Below are positions 2,722 through 61,941 of a stretch of 64,000 nt of DNA, piece by piece (position 1 is the first letter of the stretch; each line of letters starts with the position of its first letter). The translations under genes and the position numbers were made by a program. The notes under the pieces are model-generated. The model had not been told where the DNA came from. It saw only the letters and a list, made by a program, of their open reading frames with translations, and did not search any database. The stretch comes from Stegostoma tigrinum (taxonomy: Eukaryota): positions 30,485,020-30,549,019 of the forward strand of contig NC_081386.1 in the NCBI RefSeq assembly GCF_030684315.1, given 5' to 3'.

Positions 2722-2838
2722 GTTGAGGTTGGTTGGCTCGCCGAGCTGATTTGTTGCTCTGTAGACGTTTCTTTACTGTGCTTGGTAACATCGTCAGTAC
2801 AGACCCACAACCCGAGCTACAAATCTACTCCAAAACCT
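2722..2838. mobile_element. Short Penelope-like insertion with internal inversion
   Basis: 14-bp TSD TAAAGATGCTTCAT (2708-2721) / TAAAGGTGCTTCAT (2839-2852). ~2730-2800 matches ~47925-47995 directly, and ~2805-2836 is the reverse complement of ~47882-47912. Confidence 0.85.
2758..2803 (-). ncRNA. Minimal hammerhead ribozyme motif (PLE-associated)
   Basis: UCUGUA-CUGACGA-U-GUUAC(CAAGCACA)GUAAA-GAAAC-GUC-UACAGA. Perfect 6-bp stem I, intact core, palindromic ACGU stem III, GUC site. The closing pair of stem II is mismatched. Confidence 0.7.
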
Positions 2839-3464
2839 TAAAGGTGCTTCATTCTTACTACCTATTTGAAAAATAAGGCATTGAAGAATTGTGGAAAGAT
2901 ATATCTACTTCAAGTTTTGTGGGAAAAACCTGGTGTAATTTCTTTAAAAATGGTTGTTTCCTTAAAAATGGAGGCATGTCTCAGTGGTGAGTCCTGGACC
3001 AGAGACCGGTACAGGTGACGAGCCCCGGACCGGAGGCCATTGTGGTTTGGTCAGTCTCAGACTGGAAGCTGCCATGGCAGAGGCAAGGCCCTTGTGGACT
3101 GGAAGCAAGGTCTCAAGTTTTGAAGCCAAGAGTGGTATGGAGACTTGGCCTAGTGCTGTCTGGAAGCTAGGTGCTGGCATAGACTTGGTGAAAAGGACTG
3201 TAATTCAAGTACTTTTTAAAAAAACTTTTTATTCTTACGTTGGACTTTTATTTATAGCTCTTTCAATTCTGAAACAAACATTCAAGTGCCTGGAACTAGG
3301 TGCCCTGTACCCAAGACGACATCATGAGCAGTGACGTTCCAAACTTTTTACTGCACTCACTCGAGTCCATGCGACAATCTAATTCTATTCTATAAAAACA
3401 GTTTTCATACAGATATTTAGGTTAAGTTAAATGGGAAAAAGATTTGGACAGGAAAACCGACACA

Positions 3465-3745
3465 GAGGTTAGCACTGCTGCCTCATAGCACCAGGGACCT
3501 GGGTTCAATCCCATCTTCGGGTGACTGTCTGTGTGGAGTTTGCACATTCTCCCCGTATCTGTGGGGGTTTCCTCCGGGTGCTCCTGTTTTCTTCCACAGT
3601 CCAAAAATGTGCAGGCTAGGTGGACTGGCCATGCTAAATTGCCATCAGTGATCAGGAATGTGTAGATTAGGGGATGGGTCTGGGTGGGATGCTCTGAGGG
3701 TTGGTGGCCTGTTTCCACACTGCACGAAATCTAATCTAATCTAAC
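3465..3745 (+). mobile_element. HE1-type V-SINE (5' truncated)
   Basis: B box GGTTCAATCCC, V-domain GTGTGGAGTTTGCACATTCTCCCCGT..., and ATCTA-repeat tail. Homologous to 60917-61230. Confidence 0.9.
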
Positions 3746-3803
3746 ATTATTTAAATAAAGAAAGGCTGTAACAGAAAAAGGGATTTAGGCGTGATTGTGA
3801 TCA

Positions 3804-3865
3804 GAGATAATGGGAACTGCAGATGCTGGAGAATCCAAGATAATCCAGCCCCACACTTTGTTATC
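3804..3865. mobile_element. Tiny Penelope-like remnant with inversion, inside CR1
   Basis: GATAATGGGAACTGCAGATGCTGGAGAATCCAAGATAA (same as ~22430-22467) joined to inverted ATCCAGCCCCACACTTTGTTATC. Confidence 0.75.
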
Positions 3866-3952
3866 AGGGACTTTGGAGTACTTGTGCATGAAACACAGAA
3901 AGTTAGCACACAAATGCAACAAGTAGTTAGAAAGGTGAATGGAATGTTGGCT

Positions 3953-6900
3953 TGTAACGACTGTAATGAGGTCAATTAATAACCCCACTCAAGGAACCCT
4001 GGCTGACAGATATCAGAGGAGTGTCAGAAGTTCTTTTCAATCTGAGAGCTGGCTCTGAGAAAGCAGGGCCAGTGTCAAGTGCCATGCACGTGCAAATACA
4101 TTCCTGAAGAAATTCCCTCACAACTGTTGTCTTTGAGTGGAGGTAAACATTTTGGCCATCATGTCATTTTTTGGGAAGCTTGGTTCATTCAATCCTGCCA
4201 AAGACTGTGCCCAATATGTGGAAAGAACGTGTTATTTTCCCTGGGATCATGTCACTGGGACAGATGAAAAGCAATGAAGAATTCTCGTGACAACTTGTAG
4301 ATGCACAGCTTTTTTCCATTAGGAACCTACCGTTTCCTGAGGCACCTGAAAAACCTTTCAAGAGTTGAGGGATTTAGTTCATGAATGTTATGAGCCCAAG
4401 CTTCCTATCATTCTGAGATGTTATCGGTTATACTAAGCAGTTGAGAATCGGGGAATCCTTGTTGAGATTTTTGACGAGGTTAAGACAACTGGCAGAGGCA
4501 AGAGGCTTTAGTTTAATCCTTAATGAGATGCTAGGAGACCATTTGGTATGTGGGATTAATAATGTAGCCATGCAAAAACACATACTAGCTGAAGCTCAAC
4601 TGATTTCAAACTGGCTTTGTCATTAGAAAATGTATCAAGAGTTACGGGTTATGTTGAAGCAAGTGGATACCCTCACCGGGTTGACTGAACTTGGGGGGCA
4701 CCACTTGAATGAAGGCAATTGCATCGCCTCAATCAAGATATATCCTGACAGAGATAATCTAGGTCAGCCCATAGCAAAACCCCAAAACAAAGCAAAGTCT
4801 CGGCCAAACAGTTAACATTTTCTTCAGGATGCGAGTTCGCAAGCCATTGTGATTGCTGCCAATACGCAAGGCAGCAAAGAGAATCGCACTAAGCATGAAC
4901 TAAGAGAACACAGACTGGTATACAGGAGACTGCGCACCCTGGAAAGCACACCTGCAATTGGTTTGAAATACTTAAAGTGCTTGGCAATATCTAAATCAGA
5001 ACCAAAATAAATGTCTAGTAATTGCTCACCCAGTTATAATGGGCGTTGACACTGGCGTAGCTGTATCAGCGATTGGAAAACTAGTTTTTAAACAAAATTG
5101 AGCCTCGATTCCAAACCTTAATTCGGATAGACTGAGAACCTAGACCTGGGAACTTTACAGATTAAGGGTACAACTTCGATTCCAGTCTCATACAAGAAGT
5201 AACTGGTTCAGTTACCACTGACTGCAGCAAAGGACTTGGGCTGAAGCTAGATAGGACAAAATTGGTTGAGAAACATTCACTTTGATCGGCTTAATGATTT
5301 TTGATAAGAAAATGGCTGACAGAGTGAAGTCCTAATAAAATAGTCCAAAAGCTTTTCAAGAAGGTCCAGTGACAGCCAAAGGAACCAAGGCCACCTTGCA
5401 TATTGATTAAGAAGCAATTCCACGATCATGCAAGGCCCGCCCAGTACAAAGCTAGCGTGTGTGCGTGTGTGTCTGCGGGGGGACATTGCTGTCCTTCATG
5501 AAGCTAGACAGGGATGATTCAGTGAAGTATGCTAAACTTAATATCCATGAGGGTTTGTAGCAATTTACCAGACTGCCATTTGGGGTATCATCAGCCTGTG
5601 CCACATTTCAGCGGATAAAGGAGAACATTTTACATGGTTACCATTTATCTGGATGATGTGCTAATAATAGGGAATAGCACTTCGAGAACATTGACATACT
5701 CTTCAGACATTTCTCCAAAGGTGGGCATACACCTTAGAAGTGAAAAAATGCATTCCGAGCACCCTATGAGAGCGACTTGGGCTAGAATTGACAAGACCAG
5801 GTTACACCCATTGAAAGAAAAAGTGAGTAAGATCAAAGGTGTCCCAAATTCCATGTCTGTACCAGAGCTTAGGTCTTTCTTTGGGTTGGAGAGCTATTAT
5901 AGAAAGTTCATACTAACCTGGCTTCCATCACTGGCACCCATAGATCGGTTATTGAAGAAGGGCAGCCACAGAAGTGGCCTTGAAGTCAGGACTTAGCCTT
6001 TAGGGAAGTCAAGAAGCAGTTATCATTGCCTAAAGTGTTGGCACACTATGATCCCAAGGGAGATCGAGTGTTGATATGATGCCTCCCCATATGGTTGGCT
6101 CACAGGTGGCCCAAAAGAGAGGAACGCCTGGTAGTGTATACTTCCCAGACTTTGACTGATGCAGAGCACCAATACGCCAAGGTAGAGAAAGATGGTTTGG
6201 TGTGATCAAATTCCACCAATGCCTATATGGATGTAAATCTGTAACAGACCACAAACCCCTTCCACAGTCACTCAAAAAGGCTAGGCCATGCCGCCCAGAG
6301 TTTCAGGATGAATTCAGTGGTGGGTTTAAATTCTAAGTGCATACAAGTTAAAACACCTTCCTGAAGGCCAAGTAGCAACTGTGGATGTCTGAAGCCAACT
6401 CCTGCTGGCAGATATCACTGGTGCTGCCGCCACTGGAAGAGTCCATTCAGGTTTTAAACTTTCTGTACACCCTTCTGGTCACTGCTGACAATAATTAGAC
6501 TGTGAACATAAAAACATCCAGTCTTGGCAAATCTAAAATAGCTGGTGGCAATGGGGGACACGTAAGGGCCATCACAACCTTTCTGGGCCAGTGAGATCAA
6601 ATCACCCTTATTATGACGAGCAAGAGAGATTGTGCTGGGCAAAGGTCACCACCCAATACTGGCTGAATTCCACCAGGATGATCCAGGAGTTTCCAAAATG
6701 AAGATGTTAGTGAGAGGTTATATCTGGTGGCCAGGGCTGGTTGCCAACATAACCACTTTAGTGAGGTAATACATACAGTGCCATCAAGGATAAAAATTGT
6801 TGCAAGCACTCCCTCACATTTATGGGAATGGCTAGATAAACCTCTGATTCGGTTACAAGTCAACTATGCCGGACCTTTCATGGGCTGATCGTTCTTAATC

Positions 6901-8063: not shown

Positions 8064-8587
8064 TGGCCCTTATTTCAAAGGGATTACAGTATAAAAGTAG
8101 GGAAGTTTTATTGCAAATGTACAAAATGCTGGTGAGACCATTTCTGGAGCACAGAGCAATTTTGGGTCCCTTATTTATGGCAATATTCCATTCAAGGCAG
8201 TCCAGAGAAATTTAACTGGGATGATCCCTGGTACAATTGTCAACTGAGCAAAAGCTGAACACGTTGGGCCTCCACCAATTCAAGTTTAGAAGAATGAGAG
8301 GTGATCTCATTGAAACACAGAGGATTCTTAAGGGTCTTGACAGGGTTAATGCTGAGAGGATGCTTCCTCTCAAGGGAGAGTCTAGGACCAGGCGTCATCA
8401 TTCCAGAATGAAGTGGCACCAATTTCAGAATGAGAAAAGGAGGCATTTCTTTGCTCAGAGGGTCGCGTCTTTGGAACTTCTTACCACAGAGAGTCCTTAT
8501 ACATATTTAGGCTGAGATAGACAGGTTCTTGAACAGTAGGGGAATTAAAGGGCAGCAAAGCGGATGTGAGGAATGTCAGATCAGCCA

Positions 8588-9505
8588 TGTATGGCAGTAA
8601 TGTGCCTTTAAGAGAAATTTGTTGTGTACGGTTTCTCTTGCAAAGAGGTGCTACTGCAGTGGTGCCAGAATGTTTGCTTCAGAAGCAGCAGGTAAACAGG
8701 TGAATTCAGATTTTACACTGTCTACCTGCAACCTCCCACCTCACTGACCAATCCCCACCACTGCCTACCTGCACTCACCTATCACTATCCCAACTACCTT
8801 CCCTGCCCCACCCCTTCTCTCTCTATTTATTTCTGAGCTCCCTTCCCCTTCCCCTTCCCCATTTCTGAAGGGTCCTGACCTGGAACATCAGCTTTCCTGC
8901 TCGGCCTGCTGTGTTCCTTCAGCTCCACACTATGTTATCTCTGACTCCAGCATCGGGCAGTTCTTACTACCTCTGAGTGAATTCAGAGTGTTTTTTTTGT
9001 TTAAATTAGACTCAAGAAGCATGAGTGGGTCCACAGATCCAGGCTTTAGTTTGCTTTCAGCTGGGGTTTGCATTATCTGATAGATACTCTGTCTCTGCTG
9101 CAGTAAACAGCTTGAGTCCTGTCTACGCCGCTAGATTATTTCTTTTGGCGTTCCTTTCTCCTGGACTGAAAAGGAGATAGCAAGTGAGGAAAATCTGTTT
9201 TGCTGAATATGCCTTTTCCAAGGCTGTATTTAAGGGATGATGCTACATTAGGACGGTTGATGACTAGCAGTTAAATAGTATCTTACTTGTTATGTATTTC
9301 AATCGAGTTGAAGTTATACCAATTGTTCTTTTTTAGTTTGTATTTTAACTGTATTTAAGAATAAAGTGTTTTTTGCCTAATGTCTAGTAGTAGACCAATT
9401 GAATCACATCTGAACACAACACCTTACACTTGCCTTTAAATAAAAATTTAGGGTGTAGATGATCTTCTTGATATATTTTGAGGGGATTTGGTCTGATCCA
9501 TAACT
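8588..9505 (+). mobile_element. Probable solo LTR inserted in the CR1 3'UTR
   Basis: Interrupts the CR1 tail, starts TGT, ends ...CCATAAC, AATAAA near 9360, no coding remnant. Ends are imperfect. Confidence 0.5.
8711..8976 (+). mobile_element. Penelope-like 3' end fragment
   Basis: 11-bp TSD GTGAATTCAGA (8700-8710, 8977-8987). Homologous to ~23350-23600. Hammerhead region is eroded (CTGAAGGGTCCTGACCTGGAACATC). Confidence 0.85.
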
Positions 9506-18599: not shown

Positions 18600-18850
18600 T
18601 CTGATCACCTAAGCTGCTAATACTACAGATTTTCTCACCCAATACTCCACTGTGCACTTCCCCCCTGCTGCTGCGACTGTTGCATAAATGCTGTCCCCCG
18701 CAACACTTGATGTCAACTCTGAAGAGTCATCTACAATCGAAGCGTTAAGTTTTCTCTCTCTCCATGGATGCTGCCTGGCTCGCTGCAATTTCCAGAGTTT
18801 TTTTGTTTTCAGTACAGATTCCAGCATCTGTATTAAATTGCTCCTACTGG
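18600..18850 (+). mobile_element. Old Penelope-like 3' remnant
   Basis: CTGAAGAGTCATCTACAATCGAAGCGTT...CCATGGATGCTGCCTG...TTCCAGCATCTG, related to 30751-30835. Ribozyme core is degenerate. Confidence 0.65.
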
Positions 18851-22124: not shown

Positions 22125-22526
22125 GTTCCATGTGGCATCCTTTTTATTTTGTGCCCCTGGCTCTAAACTCTCAGACAGGGGAATCATTTTACTTGCATTA
22201 TCCAGTCTATCCCTTTAAATATTTTATCGGTTTTAATGAGATCACTACCCATTCATCAACATTCGACAGAATACAGGATCAGTTTCCCCAACTACTCTCC
22301 ATAGTTGTGGCATCCCAAAACAAGTTTGGTGAACTTCCATCCCTGTATTGCAATATTTTCCTTCCTTAGGTAAGGAAACAAAAGCTGCAAAGTACTTCAC
22401 GTGCAGTCTAACCAAAGATCTACACAGTTGATAATGGGAACTGCAGATGCTGGAGAATCGAAGATAATAAAATGTGAGGCTGGATGAACACAGCAGGCCC
22501 AGCAGCATCTCAGGAGCACAAAAGCT

Positions 22527-22554
22527 GACATTTCAGGCCTAGACCCTTCATCAG
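22527..22554 (-). ncRNA. Minimal hammerhead ribozyme motif (left arm)
   Basis: CUGAUGA-A-GGGU(CUAG)GCCU-GAAAU-GUC. Two substitutions versus the right-arm copy. Confidence 0.55.
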
Positions 22555-22766
22555 AGAGGGGGATGGGGTGAGGGTTCTGGAATAAATAGGGAGAGAGGGG
22601 GAGGCGGACCGAAGATGGAGAGAAAAGAAGATAGGTGGAGAGGAGAGTATAGGTGGGGAGGTAGGGAGGGGATAGGTCAGTCCAGGGAAGACGGACAGGT
22701 CCAGGAGGTGGGATGAGGTTAGTAGGTAGGAGATGGAGGTGCGGCTTGGGGTGGGAGGAAGGGATG

Positions 22767-23276
22767 CCCCACACCACCTCCCTCATCCCTATCCCAGGCC
22801 CCAAGATGACTTTCCATATTAAGCAGAGGTTCACCTGCACATCTGCCAATGTGGTATACTGCATCCACTGTACCCGGTGTGGCTTCCACTACATTGGGGA
22901 AACCAAGCGGAGGCTTGGGGACCGCTTTGCAGAACACCTCCACTCGGTTCGCAATAAACAACTGCACCTCCCAGTCGTAAACCATTTCCACTACCCCTCC
23001 CATTCTTTAGATGGCATGTCCATCATGGGCCTCCTGCAGTGCCACAATGATGCCACCCGAAGGTTGCAGGAACAGCAACTCATATTCCGCTTGGGAACCC
23101 TGCAGCCCAATGGTATCAATGTGGACTTCACCACCTTCAAAATCTCCCCTTCCCCCACCGCATCCCAAAACCAGCCCAGTTCGTCCCCTCCCCCCACTGC
23201 ACCTCACAACCAGCCCAGCTCTTCCCCTCCACCCACTGCATCCCAAAACCAGTCCAACCTGTCTCTGCCTCCCTAA
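22767..23276 (+). pseudogene. PLE GIY-YIG endonuclease domain (5'-truncated ORF)
   Basis: FTCTSANVVYCIHCTRCGFHYIGETKRRLGDRFAEH...QEQQLIFRLGTLQPNGINVDF contains the VVY/YIG motifs, CxxC and the conserved R, E and N. There is no RT. The ATG at 22713 lies in the inverted arm. Confidence 0.9.
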
Positions 23277-23505
23277 CCTGTTTTTCCTCTCACCCATCCC
23301 TCCCTCCCACCCCAAGCCACACCTGCATCTCCTACCTACTAACCTCATCCCACCTCCTTGACCTGTCCGTCTTCCCTGGACTGACCTATCCCCTCCCTAC
23401 CTCCCCACCTATACTCTCCTCTCCACCTATCTTCTTTTCTCTCCATCTTCGGTCCGCCTCCCCCCTCTCCCTATTTATTCCAGAACCCTCACCCCATCCC
23501 CCTCT

Positions 23506-23533
23506 CTGATGAAGGGTCTAGGCCCGAAACGTC
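23506..23533 (+). ncRNA. Minimal hammerhead ribozyme motif (right arm)
   Basis: CUGAUGA-A-GGGU(CUAG)GCCC-GAAAC-GUC. Intact core, 4-bp stem II, palindromic ACGU stem III. Stem I is very short. Confidence 0.7.
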
Positions 23534-24806
23534 AGCTTTTGTGCCCCTGAGATGCTGCTGGGCCTGCTGTGTTCATCCAGCCTCACATTTTATTATCTAC
23601 ACAGTTGAAGAAAGATTTCAGTACTACTGTACTCAAATCATCTTCCAATGAAAACTAACACATACTATTAGTCTTCCTAATTGTTTGCTGCACCTCTATG
23701 CGAGTCTTCAGTGACTTATTGACAAGGACATTCAAGTCTCTTTATACGTCTGCACTTTCTCATTTCTTACCATTTGGATAACCACACCTTTCCCCATATT
23801 ATATTCTATTTGCTATATTCTGTAAGTCTGTCAAAATCCCCTTGAAGCTTGTTCATGTTCACCTCAGACCATGCATTCGCACCTAGGTTTGTGTCATCAG
23901 CAAACTTTGAAATGTTACATTGAGTCCTTGTATCCAAATTCATTGTTACATTTTGTGAACAACTGGGACTCCAAGTAATGATTCTTGCAGAGCCTATTAC
24001 TAGTTACAGCTTGCCAACGTAAGAATGACCTGTTTATTCCTATTCTTCATTTTATGTCCATATGCGCATCCTTAATTTAGGCCAGTGTATTAACATCTGT
24101 CCCAGGTGGCTTTAATTTTGCGAATCAACCTTCTGTGAGGGACTTTGTCCACTAATTCCACTTCATCAATTCCGTTATTAATATCCTTCAAAAGCTCCAA
24201 CAGATTTGTCAAAGCACAATTTCCCATTCACCAGTCTATGCTGACTATGCTCAATCAGATTGCAACCAGGAGCAATCTCCTGGACTACAAAGTGGGACTA
24301 CAAACATTGGTGTTGTGCATACTTATCGGTATACTTGAACTGTAACTGTTTGGTACAAGTGCCAAAGTCTTTTGGTAAGTTCCAAGTTAAAAGCATGAAG
24401 CTCCAGAGAAAACTAACACTTTTGTTTCAGGATTGAGATAATGACATGCTCACTAACTACCCGATTTTATTAATGTTCACAAGAGCACTTTAAAGCACTT
24501 CTGTCCGAAACTTTTGCTCACCTAGAACACCAATACATAATTTTGTAGGGAACAACAGGTAAAATTGTAAAATGTCATTGTTGAGCATCACAGTGCTGTC
24601 CCACACAAAGTCATCCCATTTTCAACAATCAATTTTGGAATTTCTTCACACTTTTCAGAGTTGTTCATTGTTGGATGGTAATAAATATAGAATTGAAGAC
24701 TGTTACAGAGATAATAGGAATTGCAGATGCAGGAGGATCTGAGATAACACAATGTAGATCTGGATGAACACAGCAGGCCAAGCAGCATCAGAGGAGCATG
24801 AAAGCT

Positions 24807-24834
24807 GGCGTTTCAGGTTGAGACCCTTCCTCAG
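24807..24834 (-). ncRNA. Degenerate hammerhead motif, back-to-back with 24836-24863
   Basis: CUGAGGA-A-GGGU(CUCA)ACCU-GAAAC-GCC. The cleavage triplet is mutated. Confidence 0.45.
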
Positions 24835-24835
24835 G

Positions 24836-24863
24836 CTGAAGAAGGGTCTCGACCCGAAACGTC
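24836..24863 (+). ncRNA. Minimal hammerhead ribozyme motif
   Basis: CUGAAGA-A-GGGU(CUCG)ACCC-GAAAC-GUC with an intact core. Upstream stem I sequence was lost at the inversion junction. Confidence 0.6.
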
Positions 24864-25584: not shown

Positions 25585-26925
25585 TTACAATACAAAAACA
25601 AAGTTGCTGGAAAAGCTCAGCTGGTCTGACAGTATCTGTAAAGGAGGAAAACAGTTACCATTTTAGACCCGGTGACCCTTCCTCAGAACTGATGGTAGCT
25701 CGGAAAATGTCAGTTTATATGCAGAAAAAGGAAGAGGCATGGGGTGTGGACTAAACGATAGGATAGAGCTGAAAGAGACAGAAGAACAGTTGGAAAGACA
25801 AAGTGTTGATATCGATCAGGCTCAGAGGGTGAATAGTTGTTAATGTGGACTATTAGTGACTAACAACAGGTGGTGTGTGATGGCAGGCTATGTTGTAACA
25901 GGGCCCTGTGTGTGGGGTAGGGGGCTGGGACATGGGAGAGTTTAGGCCCTAAAATTGTTGAACTTGATGTTGAGTCCGGAGGGCTGCAGGGTCCTCAAGC
26001 AGAAAATGAAATCTTTTGGAACGTGGGAGGAAACCGGAGCACCCAGAGGAAACCCTCGCAGACATGGGGAGAATGTGCAAACTCCAAACAGTCGCCCCAG
26101 GCTGCAATCGAACCCAGGTCCCTAGTGCTGTGAGGCTGCAGTGCTAACCACTGAGCCACCGTGCCGCCACACTGTGAGCAGCAAATGCAGTAGACTAGAT
26201 TCTGACAAAGACCTGAGCCATCCCCATCCACCACCATCCTCCTCTGCTTGACTGAGCTCATCCTCACCCTCAACTTCTCCTCTCATTTTCTTTGGGTAAC
26301 AGGGGTGGCTATGGGTACCTGCATGGCCCTAGTTATGCCTGTCTCTTCATGGGTTAATGGAACAATCCTTGTTCCAGTCCTATTTTGGCCCTCACCCACA
26401 ACTCTTCCTCCAATACATTGATGATATCATCGGCGCTGGTTCCCTCTCTCGTCTGAAATTGGAAAACTTCATCAATTTTGCCTCCAATTTCCACCCTGCC
26501 CTCACTTTCATGTGGTCTATCTCTAACTCCTCCCTTTCCTTCCTTGACATTTCTGTTTCCATTTGTAGGGATAGACTGGCCACTAATATCCACTACAAGC
26601 CCATTAACACCCACAGCTACCTGGAACTATGCATCCTCACACCCCACATCCCATAAAAACTCCATCCCGTTCTCTCAGTTCCTCTGTCTCTGTCGCATAT
26701 GTTCACATGAAGCCAACCCTGTCAAGGAAGCCTCCAAAATGTCCACCCTCGTCCTCAAACCTAGGATTCCCCAGTTCCATTGTCAACAGGGCCCTCAATC
26801 AGGTCCGACCCATCTCCAGCACTTCTACCCTCACCTCTTCTCTTCCCTCCTGCAACAGCAATGGATTCCCCCAGCATCCACATCCAGAAGATCATTAGAC
26901 GCTATTTCTGCCACCATAAAGAAGG
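25585..26925. mobile_element. Penelope-like element with inversion: 3' end and GIY-YIG remnant on - (~25585-26200), RT fragment on + (~26205-26925)
   Basis: RT motifs GVAMGT, PSYACLFMG, FLQYIDDI, FLDISV, IHYKP..HSYL, SIPFSQFL. On the - strand NLVYCICCSQCG and a degenerate hammerhead at 25652-25691 with a CAGUU/AACUG stem I. Confidence 0.88.
26015..26170 (-). mobile_element. HE1-type V-SINE (5' half) nested in the PLE
   Basis: Reverse complement reads GGCGGCACGGTGGCTCAGTGGTTAGCACTG...GGTTCGATTGC...GAGTTTGCACATTCTCCCC. Confidence 0.9.
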
Positions 26926-28619: not shown

Positions 28620-31600
28620 CCAGAGTTATACAGCACAGAAACAGACCCTTCAGCCCAAGTGGTCCTTGCTGACCAGATCTCCTGAACTGAACTAGTCTCA
28701 CTTGACGGTGTGTTTGGTGCATATCCCTGTACTCTAGGGAAAAGACCTTGGCTATTCACTTTATCTATGCCGTCATGATTTTATAAACCTTTACAAAGGT
28801 CACCCCTCAAACTCCTACATTCCGGAATAAAAAGTCCAAGCCTATCCAGCCTCTCCTTATAACTCAAACATTCCAGTCTCAGTAACATTCTTGTAAATCT
28901 TCTTTACACCCTTTTCTGGTTTAATAACATCCTTCCTATAGCAGGACTACCAGAATTGTACACAGTACTTGAAATGTGGTCCTACCAAAGTCTTATACAG
29001 CCATAACATGACGTCTCAACTCCTGCACTCAAATGTTCTGACCAATGAAGGCTAATGAGCCAAACACCTTCTTCACCATCCTATCTATCTGTGACACCTC
29101 TTTCAAGGAACTATGTACCTGCAACCTTAAGTCCCTCTGTTCGACAATATTGTCTAGGGCCCTACCATTAACTGTTTAAGTCCTGCTCTGTTCATCTTAC
29201 CAAAATGCAACGCTTCACAGTTATCTGCATTAAACTCTATCTGCCATTCCTCAGCCCACTGGTTCAGTTGATCAAGATTCCGTTATCCTCTTACATAACC
29301 TTCTTCACTATCAACTACACCACCAAGTTTGATGTCATCTGCACATTTACTAACTGCACTGCCTATATTCTCATCCAAATTGTTTATATTGCTGACAAAC
29401 AACAATAAACATGATTTCCCACACACAAAGCCCTGCTGACTATCCCTAAACAGTCCTTGCCTTTTCAAATGCATAGATCCTGTCTCTCAGATTCCCCTCT
29501 AACAACTTACCCACCATGACAATAGGCTCACCAGTCTGTAGCTCCCTGGGTTTTACTTGCATCCTTTCCTAAGGAATAGCACAACTTTAGCCACCTCCAT
29601 TCATCCAGCCCTTCACTGTCAATGATTCATTTTTTTTGTTAGGCACTCTGCAATTTCTTCCCCGGCTTCCCACAACGTCCTGGGATACACTTCATCAGGT
29701 CCCAGGACATATCTACCTTTAGTGTGTGCTAAGACCTTCACCATTTCCTCTTCTGTAACATGGACTCTTTTCAAAACATCACAATGTATTTCCCCAAGTT
29801 TCCTAGCTTTCATGTCATTCTCCACAGTAAACACTGACATGAAACATTTGTTTAGGATCAACCCATCTCCTGTGCTTCCACACATAGATGGACTGGTTGA
29901 TCTTTAAGGGCCCCTTTATTTTCCCTAGTTACTCTTTTGCCCTTAATATATGAGAAGAATTTCTGGATTCTCCTTTAACCAAGGCCATCCCAAATCCGCT
30001 TTTTGCCCTCAAGATTTCCCTCTAAGTGTACGCCTACACCTGTTATACTCCTCAAGGGATTCACTTGATCCCATCTATCTATACCCAACATATGCCTCCT
30101 TTTTTCTCTTGACCAGAGTCTCAATATCTCTAGTCACCCAATGTTCCCAACACCTCCCAGCTTTGCCCTCCACACTAACGGGAGCATGCTGCCCCAGAAC
30201 TCTTGTTTTCTCACTTGTGAAAGCCTCCCACTTTCCAGACATCCCCTCCCAATCAACCTCTGAAAGTTCCTGTGAAATACTGTGAAAATTGGCCTTTAGA
30301 ACTTTAACTTTTGAAAGAGGACTATCCTTTTCCATAACTATTTTAAAACAAATAGAATGATGATTACTGGTCCCAAAGTGCTCTCTTACCAACAACTCAG
30401 TCACTTGCCCTGCCTTACTTCCCAATAGGAAGTTGAATTTTGCCTTTTCTCTGGGAGGGCAATCTACATATTGATACAGAACGTTTTCTTGAACATACTT
30501 AAATTCCTCCCCATCCAAGCATTAGCAATATGGCAGTCCCAGTCTAAGGCTGGAAGCTTAAAATCCCCTTCTATTATAACCCTACTATTCTCACAGCTAC
30601 TTGCAATCTCCCTATATATTTGCTCCTCAATTTCCTGTGACTAGCAAGGGCTCATAGTACCAAAGAGATCACCACCTTCTTATTAGGATCAAAAACTGCA
30701 GATGCTGGGAGACCACATCCATGGGGAGACAACAAGCTAACGTTTCAACTCTGATGAAGAGTCAGACTCAAAACATTAGCTTGCTGTTGCTCCATGGATG
30801 CTATCTGACCTGCTATAAGCTCCAGCATTTGTTGTCTTCATCCCCAAGTTATTTCTCAGTTCCGCCCACATAGATTCATCCTTCAGGAATGTCCTACTTA
30901 CTGCCGTGACATTTTCTGCAATCAAAAATGCCACTCCATCTCCTCTTTTGCCTCCCCTTCAACCATTCCTACAGCATCTATGTCCTAGAACCTTGAGATG
31001 CCAGTCCTGTCTCTCCTTCAATGTTTCTGTAATAGCTATGATATCCCAGATTCATGTTCCCATTCATTCCCTGAGTTGACATGTCTTTCATATCAGGCAT
31101 CTTACATTGAAATAAATATAGTTTAATTCATCAGTCTTCCTTCATTCCCTGGTGTGCTCTTGCCTGCCCTGTCTATTTAATTTGCTCTCTAAGTTCTGCA
31201 CCAACCTCAACCTTCTCTCTTGTCTCATTATTGCTTAGGGTCCCACCCTACTGCCAAATTGGTTTAAACCCTCCTAAGTAGCTTCAGCAGATCTCCCCAC
31301 CAAGATATTGATCTCTCTCCAGTTTAGGTGCTACCTGTACCTTTTGTACAGGCCACTTCTGCTCCAGAAGTGATACTAATGAACCAAAAATCTGAATCCA
31401 TGCCCCCATGCCAGGTCCTCCGTCATGCATTCATCTGCCCTATCCTCCTGTTCCTACTCTCAGCAGCACGTGGCACTGGGAGTAATCCAGAGATTACTGT
31501 CCTTGAGGTCCTGCTTTTTAGTCTCCTGCCTAACTCCCTATTTTCACTCTGTAGGACCTCATTCCATTTTCTTTCTATGCCCTTGGTACCAATGTGTACA

Positions 31601-35530: not shown

Positions 35531-35671
35531 CAACATATCCCTGAAGAGCAGCGGCGAGCCTAGCGGGATGCTCCAGTCCACATCGCCGCCGTCCGGGACC
35601 TTGATGCGGATGACCAGCTGCTGCTGGGGCGGCGGCTGCGCCTTGGACTCCATCTCACGGGGCACGAGCAT
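35531..35671 (-). CDS. MAP2K5: MAP2K5 (MEK5) coding exon 1, N-terminus and start of PB1 domain
   Basis: Translates MLVPREMESKAQPPPQQQLVIRIKVPDGGDVDWSIPLGSPLLFRDML, matching vertebrate MEK5 'VLVIRIKIPNSGAVDW...LLFRDVL'. Ends in phase 0 at a GTAAG donor (35526-35530). A second in-frame ATG is at 35651-35653. Confidence 0.95.
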
Positions 35672-36839: not shown

Positions 36840-37300
36840 GTGGGTAGCACTGCTGCCTCACAGCGCAAGGAACCGGGGTTTGAATCCACTCGAACGACTG
36901 TCTTGGTGGAGTTTGCACGTTCTCACTATGTCTGTATGGATTTTTTTCCCCACGGTGCAAAAGTGTCCAGGTTAGGTGGTTGGCCATGCTGAATTGCCCA
37001 GAGTGGCCAGAGATCTGTAGGTTAGGTGGATTAGCAATCAGAAATGCAGGATTACAGGGATAGGGTAGGCGGGATGAATCTAGGTGAAGTTTTTTTCCGA
37101 AGAAGGGTCCTGACCCGAAACGTCAAATTTCCTGCTCCTGGCTTGCTGTGTTCCTCCAGCTCCACACTGTGTTATCTCAGACTCCAGCTTTGGTAGTTCT
37201 TACTATCTTTGAGTGAGTCTATGTGAGATGTTCTTCAAAGTGTCAATGTGGACTTGTTGGCCTGAATGGCCTGTTTCCACACTGTATGGATTCTATGGAT
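36840..37300 (+). mobile_element. HE1-type V-SINE interrupted by a PLE fragment (~37088-37212)
   Basis: TAGCACTGCTGCCTCACAGCGC...GGAGTTTGCACGTTCTC and tail GGCCTGTTTCCACACTGTA. The insert has a degenerate TSD TGAATCTAGGTGA/TGAGTCTATGTGA. Confidence 0.85.
37097..37124 (+). ncRNA. Hammerhead motif variant
   Basis: CCGAAGA-A-GGGU(CCUG)ACCC-GAAAC-GUC with a U4C change. Short U/A stem I. Confidence 0.5.
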
Positions 37301-42640: not shown

Positions 42641-42644
42641 AATA

Positions 42645-44850
42645 ATATTTGGTCCATATCCCTCTAAATGCTTCCTATTTGTATATCCATCCAGATACCT
42701 TTTAAATGTTGGAATTGTACCTGTCCACCACTTCCTTTGGTAGCTCATTCCATATGTGCACCATGTCTGTGTGGAAAAAGTTACCCCTCAGGTCCTTTTC
42801 TAAGTCTTTCTCTTCTCTAAACCTATGCCCTATAATTTTTGACTCTCCAACCCTTGGAAAAAGACCTTGGCTATTCACCCTATCCGTGGCCATCATGATT
42901 TTGTAAACCTCTATAAGGTCACCACTCAGGCTTCAGTGTTCCAGGGAAAAAGCCCCAGCCTATTCAGCCTCTCCCTGTAACTCAAACCCTCCAGTCCCAG
43001 CAACACCCTTGTAAATCATTTCTGCTTCCTCTCAGAATTAACAGCATCTTTACTCCAGAGGGACAACCAGAATTATATGCAGCATTCTAAAAGTGGCATC
43101 ATCAATGTCCTGTACAGCCACAACATGATGCCCCAACTCCTGTACTCACTGTTCTGACTAATGAAGGCAAGTGTGCCAAATACCTTGAACACCCTGTCTA
43201 CCTGAAACTCCACTTTCAAGGAATTATGCACCTCTTTGTTTGGCAACACTCCCCAGGGAGTATACTATTAATTGTACAAGTCCTGCTCTGGTTTGCCTGA
43301 CAAAAATGCAACACATCACATTTATCTAAATTAACCACCATCTGTCATTTCTCGGCCCATTGGCCCATCTGATCAAATTCCCATTGTACTCTGAGATAAT
43401 CTTCTTCATTGCCCACTACACCACCAATTTTGGTGCTATCCACAGACTTATGAACCATACCTCCTATATTCATATTCAAATTATTTGTATACACGATGAA
43501 AAGCAGTGGGCCCAGCATCGATCCTTGTGGAGCACTGCTAGTTACAGGCCTCCAATCTAAAAAGTAACCTCAACCACCACCCTCTGTCTCCTACCTTCAA
43601 AGCAGTTTTGTATCCAATTGGCTAGCTCCCCCTGGATCCCATGTAATCTAATCTTACCAACCAGTCTACCATGCGGGACCTTGTTGAATGGTTATGAAGT
43701 TCATATAGACCACGTTTACTGGTCTGCCTTCATCAATTTTCTTTGTCACCTCTTCAGAAACTCAATACAACTAGTGACACATGATTTTCCACATACAAAG
43801 TCATGTTGACTATGCCTAATCGATCCTTGCCTTTCCAAATGCTTGTAAAGAATTTCTTCCAACAACTTACCCACCAGTGACATAAGGCTCACCAGTCTAT
43901 AGTTCCCTGGCTTTTTCCCTACAGTCTTCCTCAAATAGAGGCATCCCACATGAGCCAGTCTTCTGGCTCCTTACCTGTGGCTGTCAATGATACAAATATC
44001 TCAGCAAGGGGACTGGCAATCTCTTCCCTAGCTTCTCTCAAGGTTCTGGGAAACTTGATTCTACCTCTCCACCTTTTAGAACCCTCAGCACCTCATCTTC
44101 CGTAATATGAACTCTTTTCAAGACATCACTTTTTATTTCTCCAAGTTCCCTAGCTTTCATGTCCTTCTCCATAGTAAATATTGGAAATATTCATTTAGTA
44201 TCTCACCCGTCTCCTGTAGTTCCACATAGAGATGGCCTCATTGATCTTTAAGGGATCCTATTCTCTCCCTAGTTATTCTCTTGATTTTAATGTACTGATT
44301 CTGTTTGTGTTCTCCTTAACTCTGTTTGTCAAAGCTATCTCATGCTCCCTTTTTGCCCTCCTGATTTCCCTCTTAAAATATTCTCCTATTGCCCTTATAC
44401 TCCTCCAGGGATTCACTTGGTCACAGCTGTCTATACCTGATAAATGCCTCCTTTTTCTTGACCAGTGTCTTAATTTCATTACTAAAAACCAAAAGAACTG
44501 TGATGCTATAAATCAGGAACAAAAACAAAGTTGCTGGAAAAGCTCAGCAGGTCTGGCAGCATCTGTGAAAGAAAAAACACAGTTAATGTTTCGGGTCTGG
44601 TAACCCTTCCTCAAAATTCTCTAGTTGTCCAGCATCCCTGACGCTTACCAGACTTGCTGTCCACACTAACAGTAATATACTTTCCCTGAATTCTTGTAAT
44701 TTCATTTTTAAAGGACTCCCACTTCCCAACTGTCCCTATCGAAATTTAACTTTTTGATTAGTTCTATAATTTTCCGTAACAACTTTAAAATTAATATAGT
44801 CATGATCACTTGTCTCAAAGTGCTTCAACACTGACACCTCAGTCATTTGC
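42645..44850 (-). mobile_element. CR1 LINE ORF2 and 3' end
   Basis: KPGNYRLVSLMSLVGKLLE, SQHDFVCGKSC, KREIRRAKREHEIAL, DLRGNFF...VHIWNELP. Confidence 0.9.
44490..44618 (-). mobile_element. Penelope-like 3' remnant with hammerhead variant, nested in CR1
   Basis: Homologous to ~25590-25690. The - strand reads UUGAGGA-A-GGGUU(ACCA)GACCC-GAAAC-AUU-AACU. Confidence 0.8.
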
Positions 44851-47881: not shown

Positions 47882-48618
47882 GTTTTGGAGTAGATCTGTA
47901 GCTCGGGTTGTGAGTGTTGACATTGGTTGGCTCGCCAAGCTGGTTTGTTGTTCGCAGCCGTTTTGTTACAGTGCTTGGTAACATCCTCAGTGCAGCCTCT
48001 GATGAAGCATTGGTGTGTTTTCCTGCCTGGTTTTTAAACCTGGGGTCCGTTGCGATGGATTGCCTCACTTCCGGGTTTTCTCTGTAGTGGAATGTATACG
48101 GGGTTGAGTTCAATGTGTATTAATAGTCTGCTTCATGGAGTGCCATGCTTCCAGGAATCCTCGTGCTTGTCTCTGCCTAGCCTGTCCCAGGATCTTGGTG
48201 TTTTCCCAGTTGAAGTCATGGTTCTCCTTGTCCATGTGGATTGAGATGAGTGAGTATTGGTCGTGTCCTTTTGTGGCCACATGCAAACAGACACGACCAG
48301 TACTCACTCATCTCAATCCACATGGACAAGGAGAACCACGACTTCGACTGGGACAACACCAAGATCCTGGTACAGGCTAGGCAGAGACAAGCACGAGGAT
48401 TCCTGGAAGCATGGCACTCCACGAAGCAGACTATTAATACACATTGAACTCAACCCCGTATACATTCCACTACAGAGAAAACCCGGAAGTGAGGCAATCC
48501 ATAGCAACGGACCCCAGAGTTTAAAAACCAGGCAGGTAAACACACCGACGCTTCTTCAGAGGCTGCTACCAAGCGCGGTAACGAAACGTCTGCCCAACAA
48601 CAAACCAGCTCGGCAACC
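47882..48618. mobile_element. Penelope-like fold-back (second family) with ~330-bp inverted arms
   Basis: Arms ~47934-48267 and 48290-48614 with a 22-nt loop. Encodes a GIY-YIG C-terminus (SLISIHMDKENHDFDWDNTKIL...RGFLEAWH) on both strands. Confidence 0.92.
47954..47993 (-). ncRNA. Degenerate hammerhead motif
   Basis: GCA-CUGAGGA-U-GUUAC(CAAGCACU)GUAAC-AAAAC-GGC-UGC. Stems I and II are intact; G12 and the cleavage triplet are mutated. Confidence 0.5.
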
Positions 48619-53734: not shown

Positions 53735-53915
53735 GATTGTTGGAAAAAGCCATCTGGTTCGCTTATGTGCTTCAGAGAAAGAAACTGCCATCCTTACCTG
53801 GTCTGGCCTACATGTGATTCCAAACCCACAGTGATTTCTGCTCTGAGCAATTAGGGACGGGCAATAAATGCTGGCCTAGTCAGCGATGCCCTCATCCCGT
53901 CAATTAATAAAAAAC
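53735..53915 (+). mobile_element. SINE 3' portion nested in Gypsy
   Basis: Same family as 51835-52030. Confidence 0.8.
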
Positions 53916-56900: not shown

Positions 56901-57814
56901 GGTGGGCATAATAAATGGCTTTCATGTTCTGTATTTGGAAGTATGAATGCTAATGAATCATATAATGGATTTTTGCAGCTCTCACTATCTCATCAAGTTG
57001 GCTGTTTTTCACATATAGGCTTAGAAAGAGTATCAGAAAACTGCAGAAACATTACAGTTAACCCCCGTTTCTTCCACAATTATCATCTACATGGTGCTTT
57101 CTCTTTCTAGTTAATACCATATTTACAGCAGAGAAACGGGTAATTGACCTAATTGGTTCATGTCAGTATTTATGCTTCAGTTCAACCTCCCCTCATACTG
57201 CTTCATTTTATCCTATCAGCTTATTCCCATCCTTTTTAGCTCATGTATTTATCTAGCTTCTCCTTATTTCCCCACTGCTCAATATAGTAGGGTGGTCCAA
57301 ATTCTAACCACTCTCTAGATAAAAACATTTCCCTGGAATTTCCTGTTTAATTTACTTCATTAAATAGATATTAGGATCAAGAACTTTAGATAAGATGGAA
57401 TTGAGTGCAACTCTGGTTTAATGTCCCAATTGATTTTTATTCTCTAGTGAAATGAATGAAGAGTAATATCAAGTGAGGTGTAAATCTAGCTGTGGAAGAC
57501 ATGCAGGTTTGGGAGAGGGAGACTCTGAGCTGGGGTAGGCTTAATTGTAGTATCCGGAGATGCCGGTGCATTGCAGCAAGTGTGTATTTCAGGAGTCACA
57601 GGGAGAAACTCTTCTGTAGGATAAATCTAGCCGATCTTGTTTGTTTCCTCCTGGTGAGTTACATTAAATTGGTCCCATTATGCCTGTCTTGGTTCAGTTG
57701 TGGCATTTTACATTGGAATCAAATGGGTTCAAAACTGGTCGACCTTAGCATATGTTTTAGATTGGCATTTCAGTACACTACTGCAAAAGTTTTGCATTGT
57801 CTGTGATGGCATTT

Positions 57815-58200
57815 TCATATGAGATGTTAAATTGAGGCCCACTTGCCTGTTCAGCTGGGTAGAAAGATCCCATGGAACCACTCAAAGAAAGAATTCACAT
57901 GACACCGGGTTGTAGTTCAACAGGTTTATTTGAAACCACAAGCTTTCTGAGTGCTGCTCCTTCGTTAGGTGAAGTGGAGGGAAGTGCACAGGCACAGACT
58001 GTGTCCACCCCAGTCCAATACTGGCACCGCCATATCATATGCAAAGAAAAGCAGAGGAGCTCACCCAGCACATAGAACATTTGTTCTTCAACCAACACCA
58101 CCAATACAGATTAACTGGTCATCTAGTATATCACCTTGTTGTGTCTAGATTAGTATACATATTTCTCTACAAAAATAATAGTGTCTGTTCATTAAGAATA
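57815..58200 (+). mobile_element. Deu-domain SINE (AmnSINE1/SacSINE1-like) interrupted by a PLE fragment
   Basis: GAGATGTTAAATTGAGGCCC...AAAGATCCCATGG...GCAGAGGAG...TCAACCAACACCAC resembles the Deu-domain consensus, recalled from memory. Confidence 0.65.
57893..58040. mobile_element. Short Penelope-like insertion (third family) with degenerate hammerhead
   Basis: The - strand 57937-57971 reads CAC-CUAACGA-A-GGAGC(AGC)ACUCA-GAAAG-CUU-GUG, with palindromic AGCU stem III. CAAAGAAA is repeated on both flanks. Confidence 0.7.
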
Positions 58201-59745: not shown

Positions 59746-59814
59746 ATTTAGTTTTAAATTTTCAAATTGTTCTGAACTCAATAACTTTCTTCAGAAGAAG
59801 TTTCCAATTTCTAC

Positions 59815-60030
59815 TATCAGTTCAGTGGCTGGGCAAATGGTTTGTGAAGCAGTGTGATCCGGACAGTGTGGGTTCAATTCCCACACCAGCTGAGGTTACC
59901 ATGAAGGACTCTCCTTCTCAACCTCTCACCTTGGCTGAGGTGTGGTGGCCCTCAGGTTAAATCACCACCAGTCATCTCTCTTCAATGAGACAGCAGCTCT
60001 ATGGTCTGATAAGACTATGGTGACATACCT
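59815..60030 (+). mobile_element. tRNA-derived SINE (other family)
   Basis: A-box-like TCAGTTCAGTGG and B box GGTTCAATTCC, followed by a non-tRNA body. Confidence 0.6.
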
Positions 60031-60916
60031 ACATCCAAGAATTTCTTGCTTTAATTGTTCCATGGACAAAAAATATTTCTCTTTATCTACTCCATCAATT
60101 TTATTTGGTCACTGGACAGTGATTAGGAACACTCCGAACAAATTCCTCAACTGTTGATATGGCTAAAATTAATCAAACCCATGAAGAGTCAAATCTGGTA
60201 CTTTTTTGAACCAGGTGACTGAGACTGCTGCTGGACAGTCAATTTAAGTACTGAACAGATGAGAGAATAGCGGTACCATTAGTTCACAAATAATCTGAAT
60301 CTTAATCTTAGATGATAAATCAAATCATTTTGACATTCCTGTTAAAAGATATTTAATACTGACCTCCAAACGAAGTTATTATTAGACTCCAGGAAATGTA
60401 ATCTAGCACAAAGTTACTTCCATCATCTCATATAGCTTACTCTAGTTTCAGTAATTTGAAATTACTTGTGACTGTACACTGGAGAGTATGAAGCAATGAA
60501 TATAGGGTATCTCACCAGTCACACAGTCCCAATGTTCCTTCATGGATATAAAAGATCTTTTAGTTCAACTGCACCAAAAATTATGAAACCCTTTTACTTA
60601 AGGAAAGAATTATTATCTGTTCTTGTCCTATTTCTTTTTTCTACCCATTTCGTGTTTCTTCATCACCTCTTTATCTAATACACCTCCAGCTGAGATCAAC
60701 TAACGAGCCATGGAATGGGGATCAAACTTGAAACCTTCCTGGTCTAGCCACATTGATAACAGTGAATTTGCATTGTCCTAGTTTTCTGTAGTGAGTTGCT
60801 GGTTTGTATTAGTACTTAGACATTTATGCAAGCATTTGTTGAATATGTACTGTCTGACAAGAATTCACATTTAAGTAGCACCTTTTTATAGAATTATAGA
60901 ATATCTACATAACGCG

Positions 60917-61230
60917 GGGTGGCACGGTGGCTCAATGGTTAGCACTGCAGCCTCACAGCGCCAGGGACCCAGGTTCGATTCCAGCCTCTGGCAACTGTCT
61001 GTGTGGAGTTTGCACGTTCTCTCCGTGTCTGCATGGGTTTCATCCGAGTGCTCCGGTTTCCTCCCACAGTCCAAAGATGTGCAGGCTAGGTGGGTTGGCC
61101 AGGCTAAATTGCCCGTAGTGTTCAGAGGTGTGTGGGTTATAGGGGGATGGGTCTGGGTGGGATGCTTCAAGGGGTGGTGTGGACTTGTTGGACCAAAGGG
61201 CCTGTTTCCACACTGTAGGGAATCTAATCT
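60917..61230 (+). mobile_element. Full-length HE1-type V-SINE
   Basis: A box TGGCTCAATGG, B box GGTTCGATTCC, V domain, CR1-like tail GGCCTGTTTCCACACTGTAGGGAATCTAATCT. Confidence 0.93.
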
Positions 61231-61782
61231 TTAAAAAAAACCTAGAAACTTCAAAGGCAGAAGGAAAGAAAAAGATCTAAGCCCAAATTAGTTATTAGCA
61301 TAACCTTCAGATAGCAAGACAAACCTCCTTTGAATAATTATAGATAGCAGTATGCTATTATTGGCATGACATTAAAAATACAACATTAACCCATGGATAC
61401 AGAATTTGCCTATACTAATGGGATCTTATATTTTACAGAAAATAGGACATGTCCATGGATTAAGAAAGGAAAACAAACAGGCAAATGAATCTCATAGCAG
61501 CCTTACAGAATCCTAGTGATCTCTGATGGCATTGCTTGGGGCAAGACAGGGGCCATTATTTTGAAGCACAGTGACTAATGTAAGCTCTTCAGGAGAGAGG
61601 GGAGTCAAAAACATCTGATCCAATGATGAAGATTGCACAAATTGTCATCGTTGGGTGATTGGTTAAAGGGTGAATGGTTTGGATCTACAATCTGCTGGTT
61701 GTAGGACAACAGTACCACACACACTGAAAACCAAATAGATGTATGGATTCAAAACAAATCAAGCAAATTCCTATGGAAAAGT

Positions 61783-61941
61783 TAATAAAATGTGAGGCTG
61801 GATGAACACAGCAGGCCAAGCAGCATCTCAGGAGCACAAAAGCTGACGTTTCGGGCCTAGACCCTTCATCAGAGAGGGGGATGGGGGGAGGGAACTGGGA
61901 GGAACTCTGGAATCTCCAGCATCTGCAGTTCCCATTATCTC
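61783..61941. mobile_element. Young short Penelope-like insertion with inversion
   Basis: 14-bp TSD TCCTATGGAAAAGT (61769-61782, 61942-61955). 61783-~61900 is nearly identical to ~22465-22580. ~61910-61941 is the inverted terminal segment. Confidence 0.93.
61845..61872 (-). ncRNA. Minimal hammerhead ribozyme motif
   Basis: CUGAUGA-A-GGGU(CUAG)GCCC-GAAAC-GUC, identical to 23506-23533. Confidence 0.7.

Follow-up and report, generated by a model that had tools for sequence, protein, structure and literature searches.

The hammerhead-type motifs scattered over the 64,000 nucleotides of Stegostoma tigrinum DNA analyzed here (the window) are very probably minimal hammerhead ribozymes (min-HHR) of retroelement pLTRs. 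They would derive from no fewer than five families, Penelope-like (PLE) where tested, and survive in truncated insertions that decay neutrally. Ribozyme activity is predicted for the RNA of tandem source elements alone, where the motif would probably work as a dimer and probably be assisted by the element's protein.

A motif or its remnant was found at all 14 sites of the original prediction, whose coordinates for minus-strand motifs are the low end on the plus strand. These 14 motifs stem from 12 PLE insertions; two pairs are the head-to-head arms of one insertion each. The "about a dozen" motifs announced there are real as sites, but a dozen intact ones do not exist, the conserved core bases being complete in five of the 14 (2797-, 22554-, 23506+, 24836+ and 61872-). 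Every structural feature is kept only in 23506(+) and 61872(-), and most others are broken cores. The palindromic tetramer, predicted as ACGU or AGCU, was also found, but AGCU is present in one window copy only, itself broken. The motifs and the features around them are:

2764..2797, minus strand: family C2 min-HHR; core intact, 6-bp helix I, G10.1-C11.1 pair closing helix II lost
8865..8890, plus strand: eroded family A2 motif with a core deletion, inside a pLTR fragment at ~8743-8976
18719..18747, plus strand: eroded family B motif
22418..23608: whole PLE insertion, flanked by a 14-bp target-site duplication
22430..22766, minus strand: inverted pLTR arm with tail of the truncated PLE; 97% identity to 23295-23598
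22527..22554, minus strand: family A1 motif with an intact core, its palindrome decayed to AUGU
22767..23276, plus strand: 3' end of the PLE ORF, GIY-YIG endonuclease; 91% identity to residues 892-1060 of the full element L049
23506..23533, plus strand: family A1 min-HHR with all features of its family: helix I of 2 bp, helix II of 4 bp, ACGU and GUC; cleavage predicted 3' of 23533
24807..24834, minus strand: family A2 motif; core broken, U16.1 substituted
24836..24863, plus strand: family A2 motif; core intact, 5' strand of helix I lost at the inversion junction
25657..25686, minus strand: family E motif; core (G12) and tetramer broken
30751..30777, plus strand: family B motif, right arm of a foldback; core broken (G12)
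35531..35671, minus strand: first coding exon of MAP2K5, start codon at 35671
37097..37124, plus strand: family A2 motif, upstream of MAP2K5; core broken (U4), copy begins at the core
44585..44614, minus strand: family E motif; core broken (C3), copy begins at the core
47957..47990, minus strand: family C2 motif, left arm of a 680-bp foldback; core broken (G12 and U16.1)
57940..57968, minus strand: family D motif with the AGCU tetramer; core broken (G5)
61845..61872, minus strand: family A1 min-HHR, complete for its family

The prediction had placed the motifs across the MAP2K5 locus. This minus-strand gene was confirmed, with further exons at 20714-20661 and 17226-17161, and nine of the 14 motifs are intronic, but five lie upstream. 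The copies, described as short and non-coding, are mostly stubs, except that 22430-23600 holds a PLE lacking its 5' part, which has a GIY-YIG frame (Pfam E 0.004, under the gathering score) besides an inverted arm and a tail, a layout that agrees with the one described for PLEs (PMC8557442). The motif at 2797 is carried by an insertion of ~120 bp (2721-2840) with a short inverted arm and a 14-nt target duplication at 2708/2839 (1 mismatch), and that at 61872 by one of ~165 bp (61782-61941) with a short inverted tail and a 14-bp target duplication. The 24834/24836 pair belongs to a head-to-head insertion at ~24700-24930 with a target duplication of at least 15 bp. The foldback at 47934-48614 has arms 90% identical, a PLE endonuclease end and a target duplication, its right arm being without the 5' half of the motif core; in the 30751 foldback the left arm (30730-30750, minus) retains only the 3' half of the motif. 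DNA upstream of the 25686 motif, to ~26010, encodes an endonuclease end resembling that of L049.

A full pLTR-RT-EN-pLTR copy, L049, was found elsewhere in the genome and supports the predicted identity of the motifs as minimal type I hammerheads of PLE terminal repeats. Its motif lies 130 nt ahead of a single 1060-aa ORF, and a second pLTR after the ORF carries a mutated motif. The ORF combines an RT (RVT_1, E 1.8e-5) having YIDD with a C-terminal GIY-YIG, both Pfam matches being below gathering scores, and between RT and EN the linker CNRRKCYTC at residue 883 fits CX2-5CxxC. Such a linker is common to Neptune and Nematis, and the element may belong to either. Partial tandems, a truncated inverted arm and an optional tail were seen in L049, L053, L057 and at 22430-23600 of the window. 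A position of the motif within a PLE pLTR was demonstrated for family A, and in families C and E a PLE endonuclease end lies upstream of the motif. Family D, with one distant PLE ORF match among 25 loci chosen by the AGCU pattern, has no firm link.

The pattern of core, stem II, palindromic tetramer and NUH occurs three times in the window and never in 100 dinucleotide shuffles, while a looser scan of the window gave six matches against a shuffle mean of 0.29 and a maximum of 2. The genome-wide search proposed with the prediction was run and gave 206,827 core matches against 5,197 in the control, one exact 31-mer making up 89,060 of them; the AGCU family gave 6,820 against 209. A motif sample contained 132 against 0, 2 and 5 in three shuffles. 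These counts refute chance matching, whose probability is practically nil, even if about 2.5% of the genome-wide matches are expected by chance and one of the six loose matches, at 59794, looks like it. Motifs passing a published descriptor number ~51,000 by extrapolation. Within 1.5 kb, 13 of the 132 sampled motifs have a same-strand partner, 20 an opposite-strand one only and 99 neither. By methods that differ, ~200,000 core matches here compare with ~9,000 in Xenopus tropicalis and ~4,000 in the coelacanth. The total of Lunse et al. is reportedly about 150,000 motifs.

As predicted, there are several families with covarying stems: helices I and II, neither constrained by the search pattern, pair with different bases in each family. 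The first pair of helix I is U-A in A1 (63/67) and E (19/23), A-U in C1 (27/27) and C-G in D (17/22). In the covariation check, which had also been proposed, 75.8% of cells were paired versus 52.8+-3.9 when shuffled (0/500) and 28-48% when slid; the representatives used were the sequences nearest each family's majority, three D rows being misaligned by one column. Pairs with a change on both sides were not in excess of shuffles (107/500). The covariation is between source families, not among dispersed copies. Helix II is closed predominantly by G10.1-C11.1, or by its CpG-decay form G-U, in A1, A2, C1, D and E, and all families have one extra base, A or U, after A9. With the tetramer left unconstrained, the 132 motifs had ACGU in 83, ACAU in 31, AUGU in 11 and others in 7, ACAU and AUGU being CpG-decay forms; a palindromic helix III of this kind implies dimers, as was predicted.

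With its helix I of 2 bp, the main family goes undetected by the published descriptor, which demands at least 3 bp (3-7 bp; PMC4209133). The third pair forms in 1 of 67 A1 motifs, and the descriptor was passed by 1 of 64 in A1 (2-bp helix I in 56), 23 of 27 in C1, 9 of 23 in E, 7 of 22 in D and by none of the four window motifs with core and stem II. No hammerhead was matched in an Rfam scan of the window at E<=5. That scan returned five weak miRNA matches on foldback hairpins, which were discarded. Monomer folding of six stretches gave z-scores from -2.28 to +0.83, no thermodynamic support for a monomeric ribozyme, and the 61872 monomer, in which a predicted CUGAUG/CGUCAG pairing buries the core, may not cut at all. 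The pyrimidine tract upstream of the motif might belong to a splice acceptor that would remodel helix I, as happens in D. virilis.

In 57 of 103 young copies the 5' end coincides with the ribozyme's 5' edge, and an inverted arm is present in roughly half of the copies that stop there. The 3' ends fall in two groups, +85..+99 and +120..+134. The predicted cut site shows no excess of copy starts in family A. Six of 322 copies start at +28, but five of these sit at inversion junctions, where AGCU is itself palindromic. Among non-inverted copies, 0 of 82 young ones and 1 of 228 in all start at +27/+28, where 0.31 and 1.66 were expected. Over all junctions, the same starts give P=0.02 (young) and 0.06 (all). 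A cut-site footprint in family A is not supported by these start counts, with which one of 1-2% stays compatible. Contigs from 4 of 21 archived sequence runs contain related pLTR sequence from other organisms, three of presumed RNA origin, the fourth run giving one contig only, which ends short of the motif. Immediately ahead of 23505 many of the contigs part ways, as the start pile-up would have it, but divergence of subfamilies would look the same. That many copies begin at the motif's first letters and not at the cut site suggests that they were likely copied from uncut RNA. Tentatively, and with rather less than even confidence, we propose that transcription starts a few bases before CUGAUGA and that RT primed in the tail of the first pLTR runs off the uncut 5' end, yielding hammerhead stubs of 100-140 bp in mass. 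If true, the genome would be a fossil map of the PLE RNA start site, the template being uncut before copying. It would also hold the largest single-genome hammerhead set among the cited publications, mostly invisible to the published descriptor.

In the mechanism that we favor, the source element is a pLTR(HHR)-ORF(RT, CxxC linker, GIY-YIG)-pLTR(HHR), as seen in L049. It would be transcribed from its own pLTR, and its endonuclease would nick the target (PMC2377424, PMC11167929). Reverse transcription would begin at an internal point of the RNA, 90-130 nt past the core, where copies are indeed found to end. It often halts at the ribozyme's 5' edge, about half of the time with an inverted arm, leaving stubs of 100-250 bp. 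The palindromic ACGU/AGCU would form helix III between two motifs, with a cut 3' of GUC, GUU or CUU. Helices I and II would be held paired by selection on source lineages, and the inserted copies show no detectable selection.

Decay amounts to 1.7% in the core and 1.9% in the flanks, counted outside CpG as 11 of 645 bases in the core and 115 of 6103 elsewhere (p=0.88); G12, which lies in a CpG, has disappeared from 15 of 76. Because of this neutral decay, the lack of strand bias and the few same-strand partners, the dispersed copies are retroelement debris and not a host ribozyme family, and the "dense dispersed ribozyme family" of the prediction was overstated. It is highly improbable that the host uses them by dimerizing in trans to cut or regulate pre-mRNAs such as that of MAP2K5. 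Core-intact copies are very many, including 41 of 59 young copies spanning the core, and many are intronic on the sense strand, as host use would have it, but the core decays as fast as its flanks and core matches in 245 kb of MAP2K5 show no bias (10 sense versus 11 antisense, a small sample). Furthermore, the sense-strand intronic motifs of the window are damaged (2797, 22554, 24834, 25686), both complete ones are antisense to, or outside, MAP2K5, and head-to-head arms would pair together as double-stranded RNA. MAP2K5 itself shows no sign of relevance.

Two other readings concern the element. The short stubs might be an independent non-autonomous element, retrozyme or SINE-like, given their sharp common 5' start, their two 3' ends and the family E copies, which almost never share more than 5 nt upstream of the core. 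This is improbable, the stubs having 90-98% identity to the pLTR of the coding element and grading into longer copies. In addition, no tandem motif array was found in the window, and a retrozyme is by definition made of tandem units whose type I motifs are canonical (10.64898/2026.07.22.740005). A family A motif that no longer cuts, kept as RNA structure or as a start-site signal for the element's protein, is unlikely but deserves more weight. The 2-bp helix I and the 0 of 82 starts favor it, as does the anole PLE, whose ribozyme mutants still insert in vitro and for which RNA-seq ends at the cut site were not found (PMC11167929). Against it, the catalytic bases are kept in all families despite variable loop II, N7 and stems, the anole motif cuts with protein present (PMC11167929), and an extended construct of the D. 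virilis PLE, also with a 2-bp helix I, cuts weakly (PMC4209133). A young family of more than 100,000 copies leaves traces of the copying step that can be read statistically, namely the start pile-up, the two 3' ends and the lack of a cut-site excess. L049 and L057 are natural tandem substrates for cleavage by a motif with a 2-bp helix I, whether dimerization suffices or the element's protein is needed. Whole families are overlooked when motifs are counted with a descriptor.

Min-HHR in PLE terminal repeats are already published (Cervera 2014), as are single min-HHRs dispersed genome-wide (PMC4209133) and a dimer result (Lunse et al. 2016/17, via the review PMC6765202), and the literature assigns the PLE hammerhead no settled role (PMC8557442, PMC11167929). 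The fresher points are the 5'-edge ends, the absence of a cut-site excess and the descriptor-escaping main family. Our literature search for shark, elasmobranch or Callorhinchus hammerheads found no relevant report, and one on truncated PLEs with pLTRs and hammerheads led only to publications already known; the main text of one shark genome paper mentions neither Penelope nor ribozyme, and PMC4209133, as drawn on here, does not name shark as a host, its supplementary listings possibly holding shark motifs. Published PLE min-HHR and the shark motifs agree in their type I topology, the single extra base ahead of helix II, the G10.1-C11.1 pair and the palindromic 15/16 positions that lack loop 3. 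In both, a genome has several covarying families, most motifs are single and dispersed, and opposite-strand pairs lie 100-700 bp apart. The shark main family differs in its 2-bp helix I, a variant accepted as PLE min-HHR in D. virilis (PMC4209133). Non-LTR retrozymes (Li et al. 2026, 10.64898/2026.07.22.740005), reported from one chondrichthyan, are like the shark stubs pLTR-derived, hammerhead-bearing and non-coding, but form tandem arrays with a hammerhead per unit, whereas the shark copies are dispersed single or head-to-head stubs. The Neptune-type EN+ PLEs (Craig et al. 2021, PMC8557442) resemble family A in the single ORF with RT and C-terminal GIY-YIG, the CX2-5CxxC linker, partial tandems, inverted 5'-truncated arm and optional tail, while a 5'-end pile-up at the ribozyme edge is not part of their description as drawn on here. 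Finally, Poseidon PAc of Anolis carolinensis (Frangieh et al. 2024, PMC11167929) is of a different clade from family A, which has the linker motif, and its ORF starts inside helix II of the ribozyme, whereas the family A frame begins ~130 nt past the core; like the shark copies, it has two internal 3' ends ~35 nt apart downstream of the ribozyme and templates that appear uncut.

All 14 positions listed in the original prediction hold a hammerhead-type motif or its remnant, and a strict motif scan of the window found 3 against 0 in 100 shuffles. The estimate of about a dozen motifs stands in that every site is real, but base-by-base reading found the conserved core bases complete in only 5/14 (2797-, 22554-, 23506+, 24836+ and 61872-; minus-strand motifs are named by their high end), with a core substitution in 7/14 and erosion in 2/14. 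Only in 23506 and 61872 are the helix II closing pair, the palindromic tetramer and the motif's own helix I strand preserved along with the core. Since the pairs 22554/23506 and 24834/24836 are each arms of one insertion, the 14 motifs represent 12 insertions, 6 of them flanked by target duplications of 12-17 matching bases. The Rfam scan of the window detected 0 of the motifs. The window motifs are a real feature of an already published kind; a literature search on shark hammerheads found no report for this lineage. The only same-strand core-intact pair in the window is 23506 and 24836 (plus strand, separated by 1,330 bases and antisense to MAP2K5), and 24836 is missing its helix I strand. 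Tail fragments of family A terminal repeats (pLTRs) that have no ribozyme core lie at 3802-3844 and 45497-45566.

Judged by sequence, the copies are retroelement relics with a predicted ribozyme motif. Their description as short and non-coding does not hold for insertion 22418-23608, which runs from an inverted pLTR arm and tail through an ORF 3' end with a GIY-YIG match to the motif-bearing pLTR, enclosed by 14-bp target duplications. When the genome was searched with this endonuclease, 150 of 232,428 candidates were scored as matches; the window's own apart, these have 93-96% identity. Nine long Penelope-like element (PLE) copies from elsewhere in the genome were examined. One of them, L049, has a motif-bearing pLTR, a 1060-aa ORF and a second pLTR, in that order; the ORF has an RVT_1 match, YIDD, a CX4CxxC linker, which points to a putative Neptune or Nematis membership, and a GIY-YIG end. 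Another, L057, carries an inverted arm together with three head-to-tail units at a spacing of 1,133 bp. This natural triplet (L057:2980-5985), with three intact same-strand motifs, is a ready-made substrate for dimer-cleavage testing. In families C and E, a related endonuclease end precedes the motif, and the link of family D to a PLE is weak.

Other repeats are present in the window. A broken RT fragment of another PLE (26206-26771, plus strand) is 44-62% identical to the L049 protein, and no hammerhead motif was found beside it. An N-terminal fragment of the family A ORF (74%) lies at 57503-57619 on the minus strand. A family C element forms a 680-bp foldback (47934-48614, arms 90% identical) whose centre gives a weak Rfam MIR7486 match (48233-48325); such foldbacks, if transcribed, would give long double-stranded RNA. 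An old repeat has two long copies in opposite orientation (4095-8178 and 50849-55461, ~70% identical). Another long repeat has several diverged copies (28628-30635, 42550-44851 and 46554-47529; 68-78%), the first containing a 148-aa frame (30075-30521) with no Pfam match.

The following exons of the host gene were mapped:

35671-35531, minus strand, MAP2K5 exon, matching MAP2K5 in PDB, with an identical sequence in a record titled Stegostoma tigrinum MAP2K5
20714-20661, minus strand, further MAP2K5 exon, mapped with stored homologs
17226-17161, minus strand, further MAP2K5 exon, mapped with stored homologs

All 30 hits of the search with exon 35671-35531 were shark records, and stored homologs place further exons as far as 204 kb or more to the left of the window. 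The motifs had been placed across the MAP2K5 locus; nine are intronic, but the other five precede the start codon. Immediately upstream of this codon is a GC-rich 32-bp unit repeated 2.3 times with 0 mismatches (35709-35781), and farther upstream are two direct-repeat pairs, 37325-37561/38137-38372 (~240 bp, 96%) and 38763-38969/40065-40271 (207 bp, 99.5%).

Decay was measured in 113 young copies, columns with more than 20% variation being set aside as subfamily markers. Non-CpG core bases were changed in 11/645 cases vs 115/6103 elsewhere (p=0.88), and G12 was lost in 15/76. The MAP2K5 span has 10 sense vs 11 antisense core matches, and a same-strand partner within 1.5 kb was found for 13/132 motifs, stretch edges slightly inflating the class with none. 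Core decay equal to flank decay, the even strands and the few partners therefore place selection on the source elements and not on inserted copies. The idea of a dense dispersed ribozyme family is overstated, as these relics have cores that decay like other bases and no strand bias in MAP2K5.

Helices were analyzed in 162 core matches from pattern-chosen and unselected loci (152 in families; 10 "other" excluded), found with a pattern that left helices I and II unconstrained. Both helices pair in all families compared, with bases differing by family, which bears out the covariation proposed between stem families. Helix I pair 1 is U-A in A1 (63/67) and E (19/23), A-U in C1 (27/27) and C-G in D (17/22), while pair 2 is C-G, U-G, A-U or U-A by family. 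Helix II pairs 2-4 vary among G-C, U-A, U-G and A-U; pair 1 is constantly G-C or its decay form. In 16 copies picked as family-typical, three rows being misaligned, 75.8% of cells paired vs 52.8% shuffled (0/500) and 28-48% slid, and one pairing measure fell within the shuffles (107/500). The main family, A1, has two helix I pairs only, the third being present in 1/67; since the descriptor of Cervera and de la Pena requires three, 1/64 of A1 pass. Monomer folds were mostly no better than shuffles, and in monomer 61872 the core is predicted to pair with the cut-site strand, a pattern that may fit a ribozyme needing a partner or protein.

What gives the finding its worth is how numerous the copies are, the family whose helix I has 2 bp, and the footprint at the start site. 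A single exact 31-mer is found 89,060 times genome-wide (control 0), and the general core pattern has 206,827 matches in 3.2 Gb vs 5,197 for the reversed control. Sub-patterns gave 6,820 vs 209 (AGCU), 16,586 vs 565 (ACGUU) and 17,485 vs 308 (ACGUC without a following A). In a motif-unselected 1.554 Mb (150 stretches at round coordinates, including the window and 23 adjoining stretches), core plus helix II was found at 132 sites vs 0, 2 and 5 in three shuffles; 25/132 pass the published descriptor as re-implemented here, which extrapolates to ~51,000 genome-wide. The accessible part of Cervera and de la Pena (PMC4209133) gives ~9,000 such motifs for X. tropicalis and 4,000 for coelacanth, and that of 10.1101/443036 notes PLE expansion in whale shark introns.

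Ends were mapped in 322 family A copies reaching the 3' part of the pLTR, 151 with identity of at least 90%. The 3' ends of the 322 form two groups ~35 nt apart. Among young copies reaching the zone, 57/103 have 5' ends between -8 and +9 relative to the first core base (0.031 per base vs 0.0009-0.0059 in six other zones); 28 of these 57 lie directly against an inverted arm, 9 against an exact duplication of at least 8 bases, and 20 are unclassed. The upstream sequences inspected are unrelated or inverted, not diverged pLTR. With inversion junctions set aside, 5' ends of family A are not enriched at the predicted cut site. Most simply, the copying template would be uncut and would either start at the 5' edge of the ribozyme or halt the enzyme there. 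The C-rich upstream tract of family A favours an enzyme stop. In family E (26 copies), too, shared sequence gives out a few bases before the core, as it does by eye in ~14/22 family D copies; this speaks for a start there, or for the folded motif blocking the enzyme. The 28 family C1 copies, in contrast, have at least 16 upstream bases in common. This pile-up was not found in the accessible parts of the literature on Penelope pLTR truncation and hammerheads. In D. virilis Penelope, the transcription start lies within the pLTR and 46 bp ahead of an intron (PMC2377424, in part); the end of that intron adjoins helix I (PMC4209133, in part). The two 3'-end groups are what the pair of internal priming sites reported for the anole PLE would produce, and the architecture of L049 and L057 is the PLE layout, as described in the available portions of PMC11167929 and PMC8557442, respectively.
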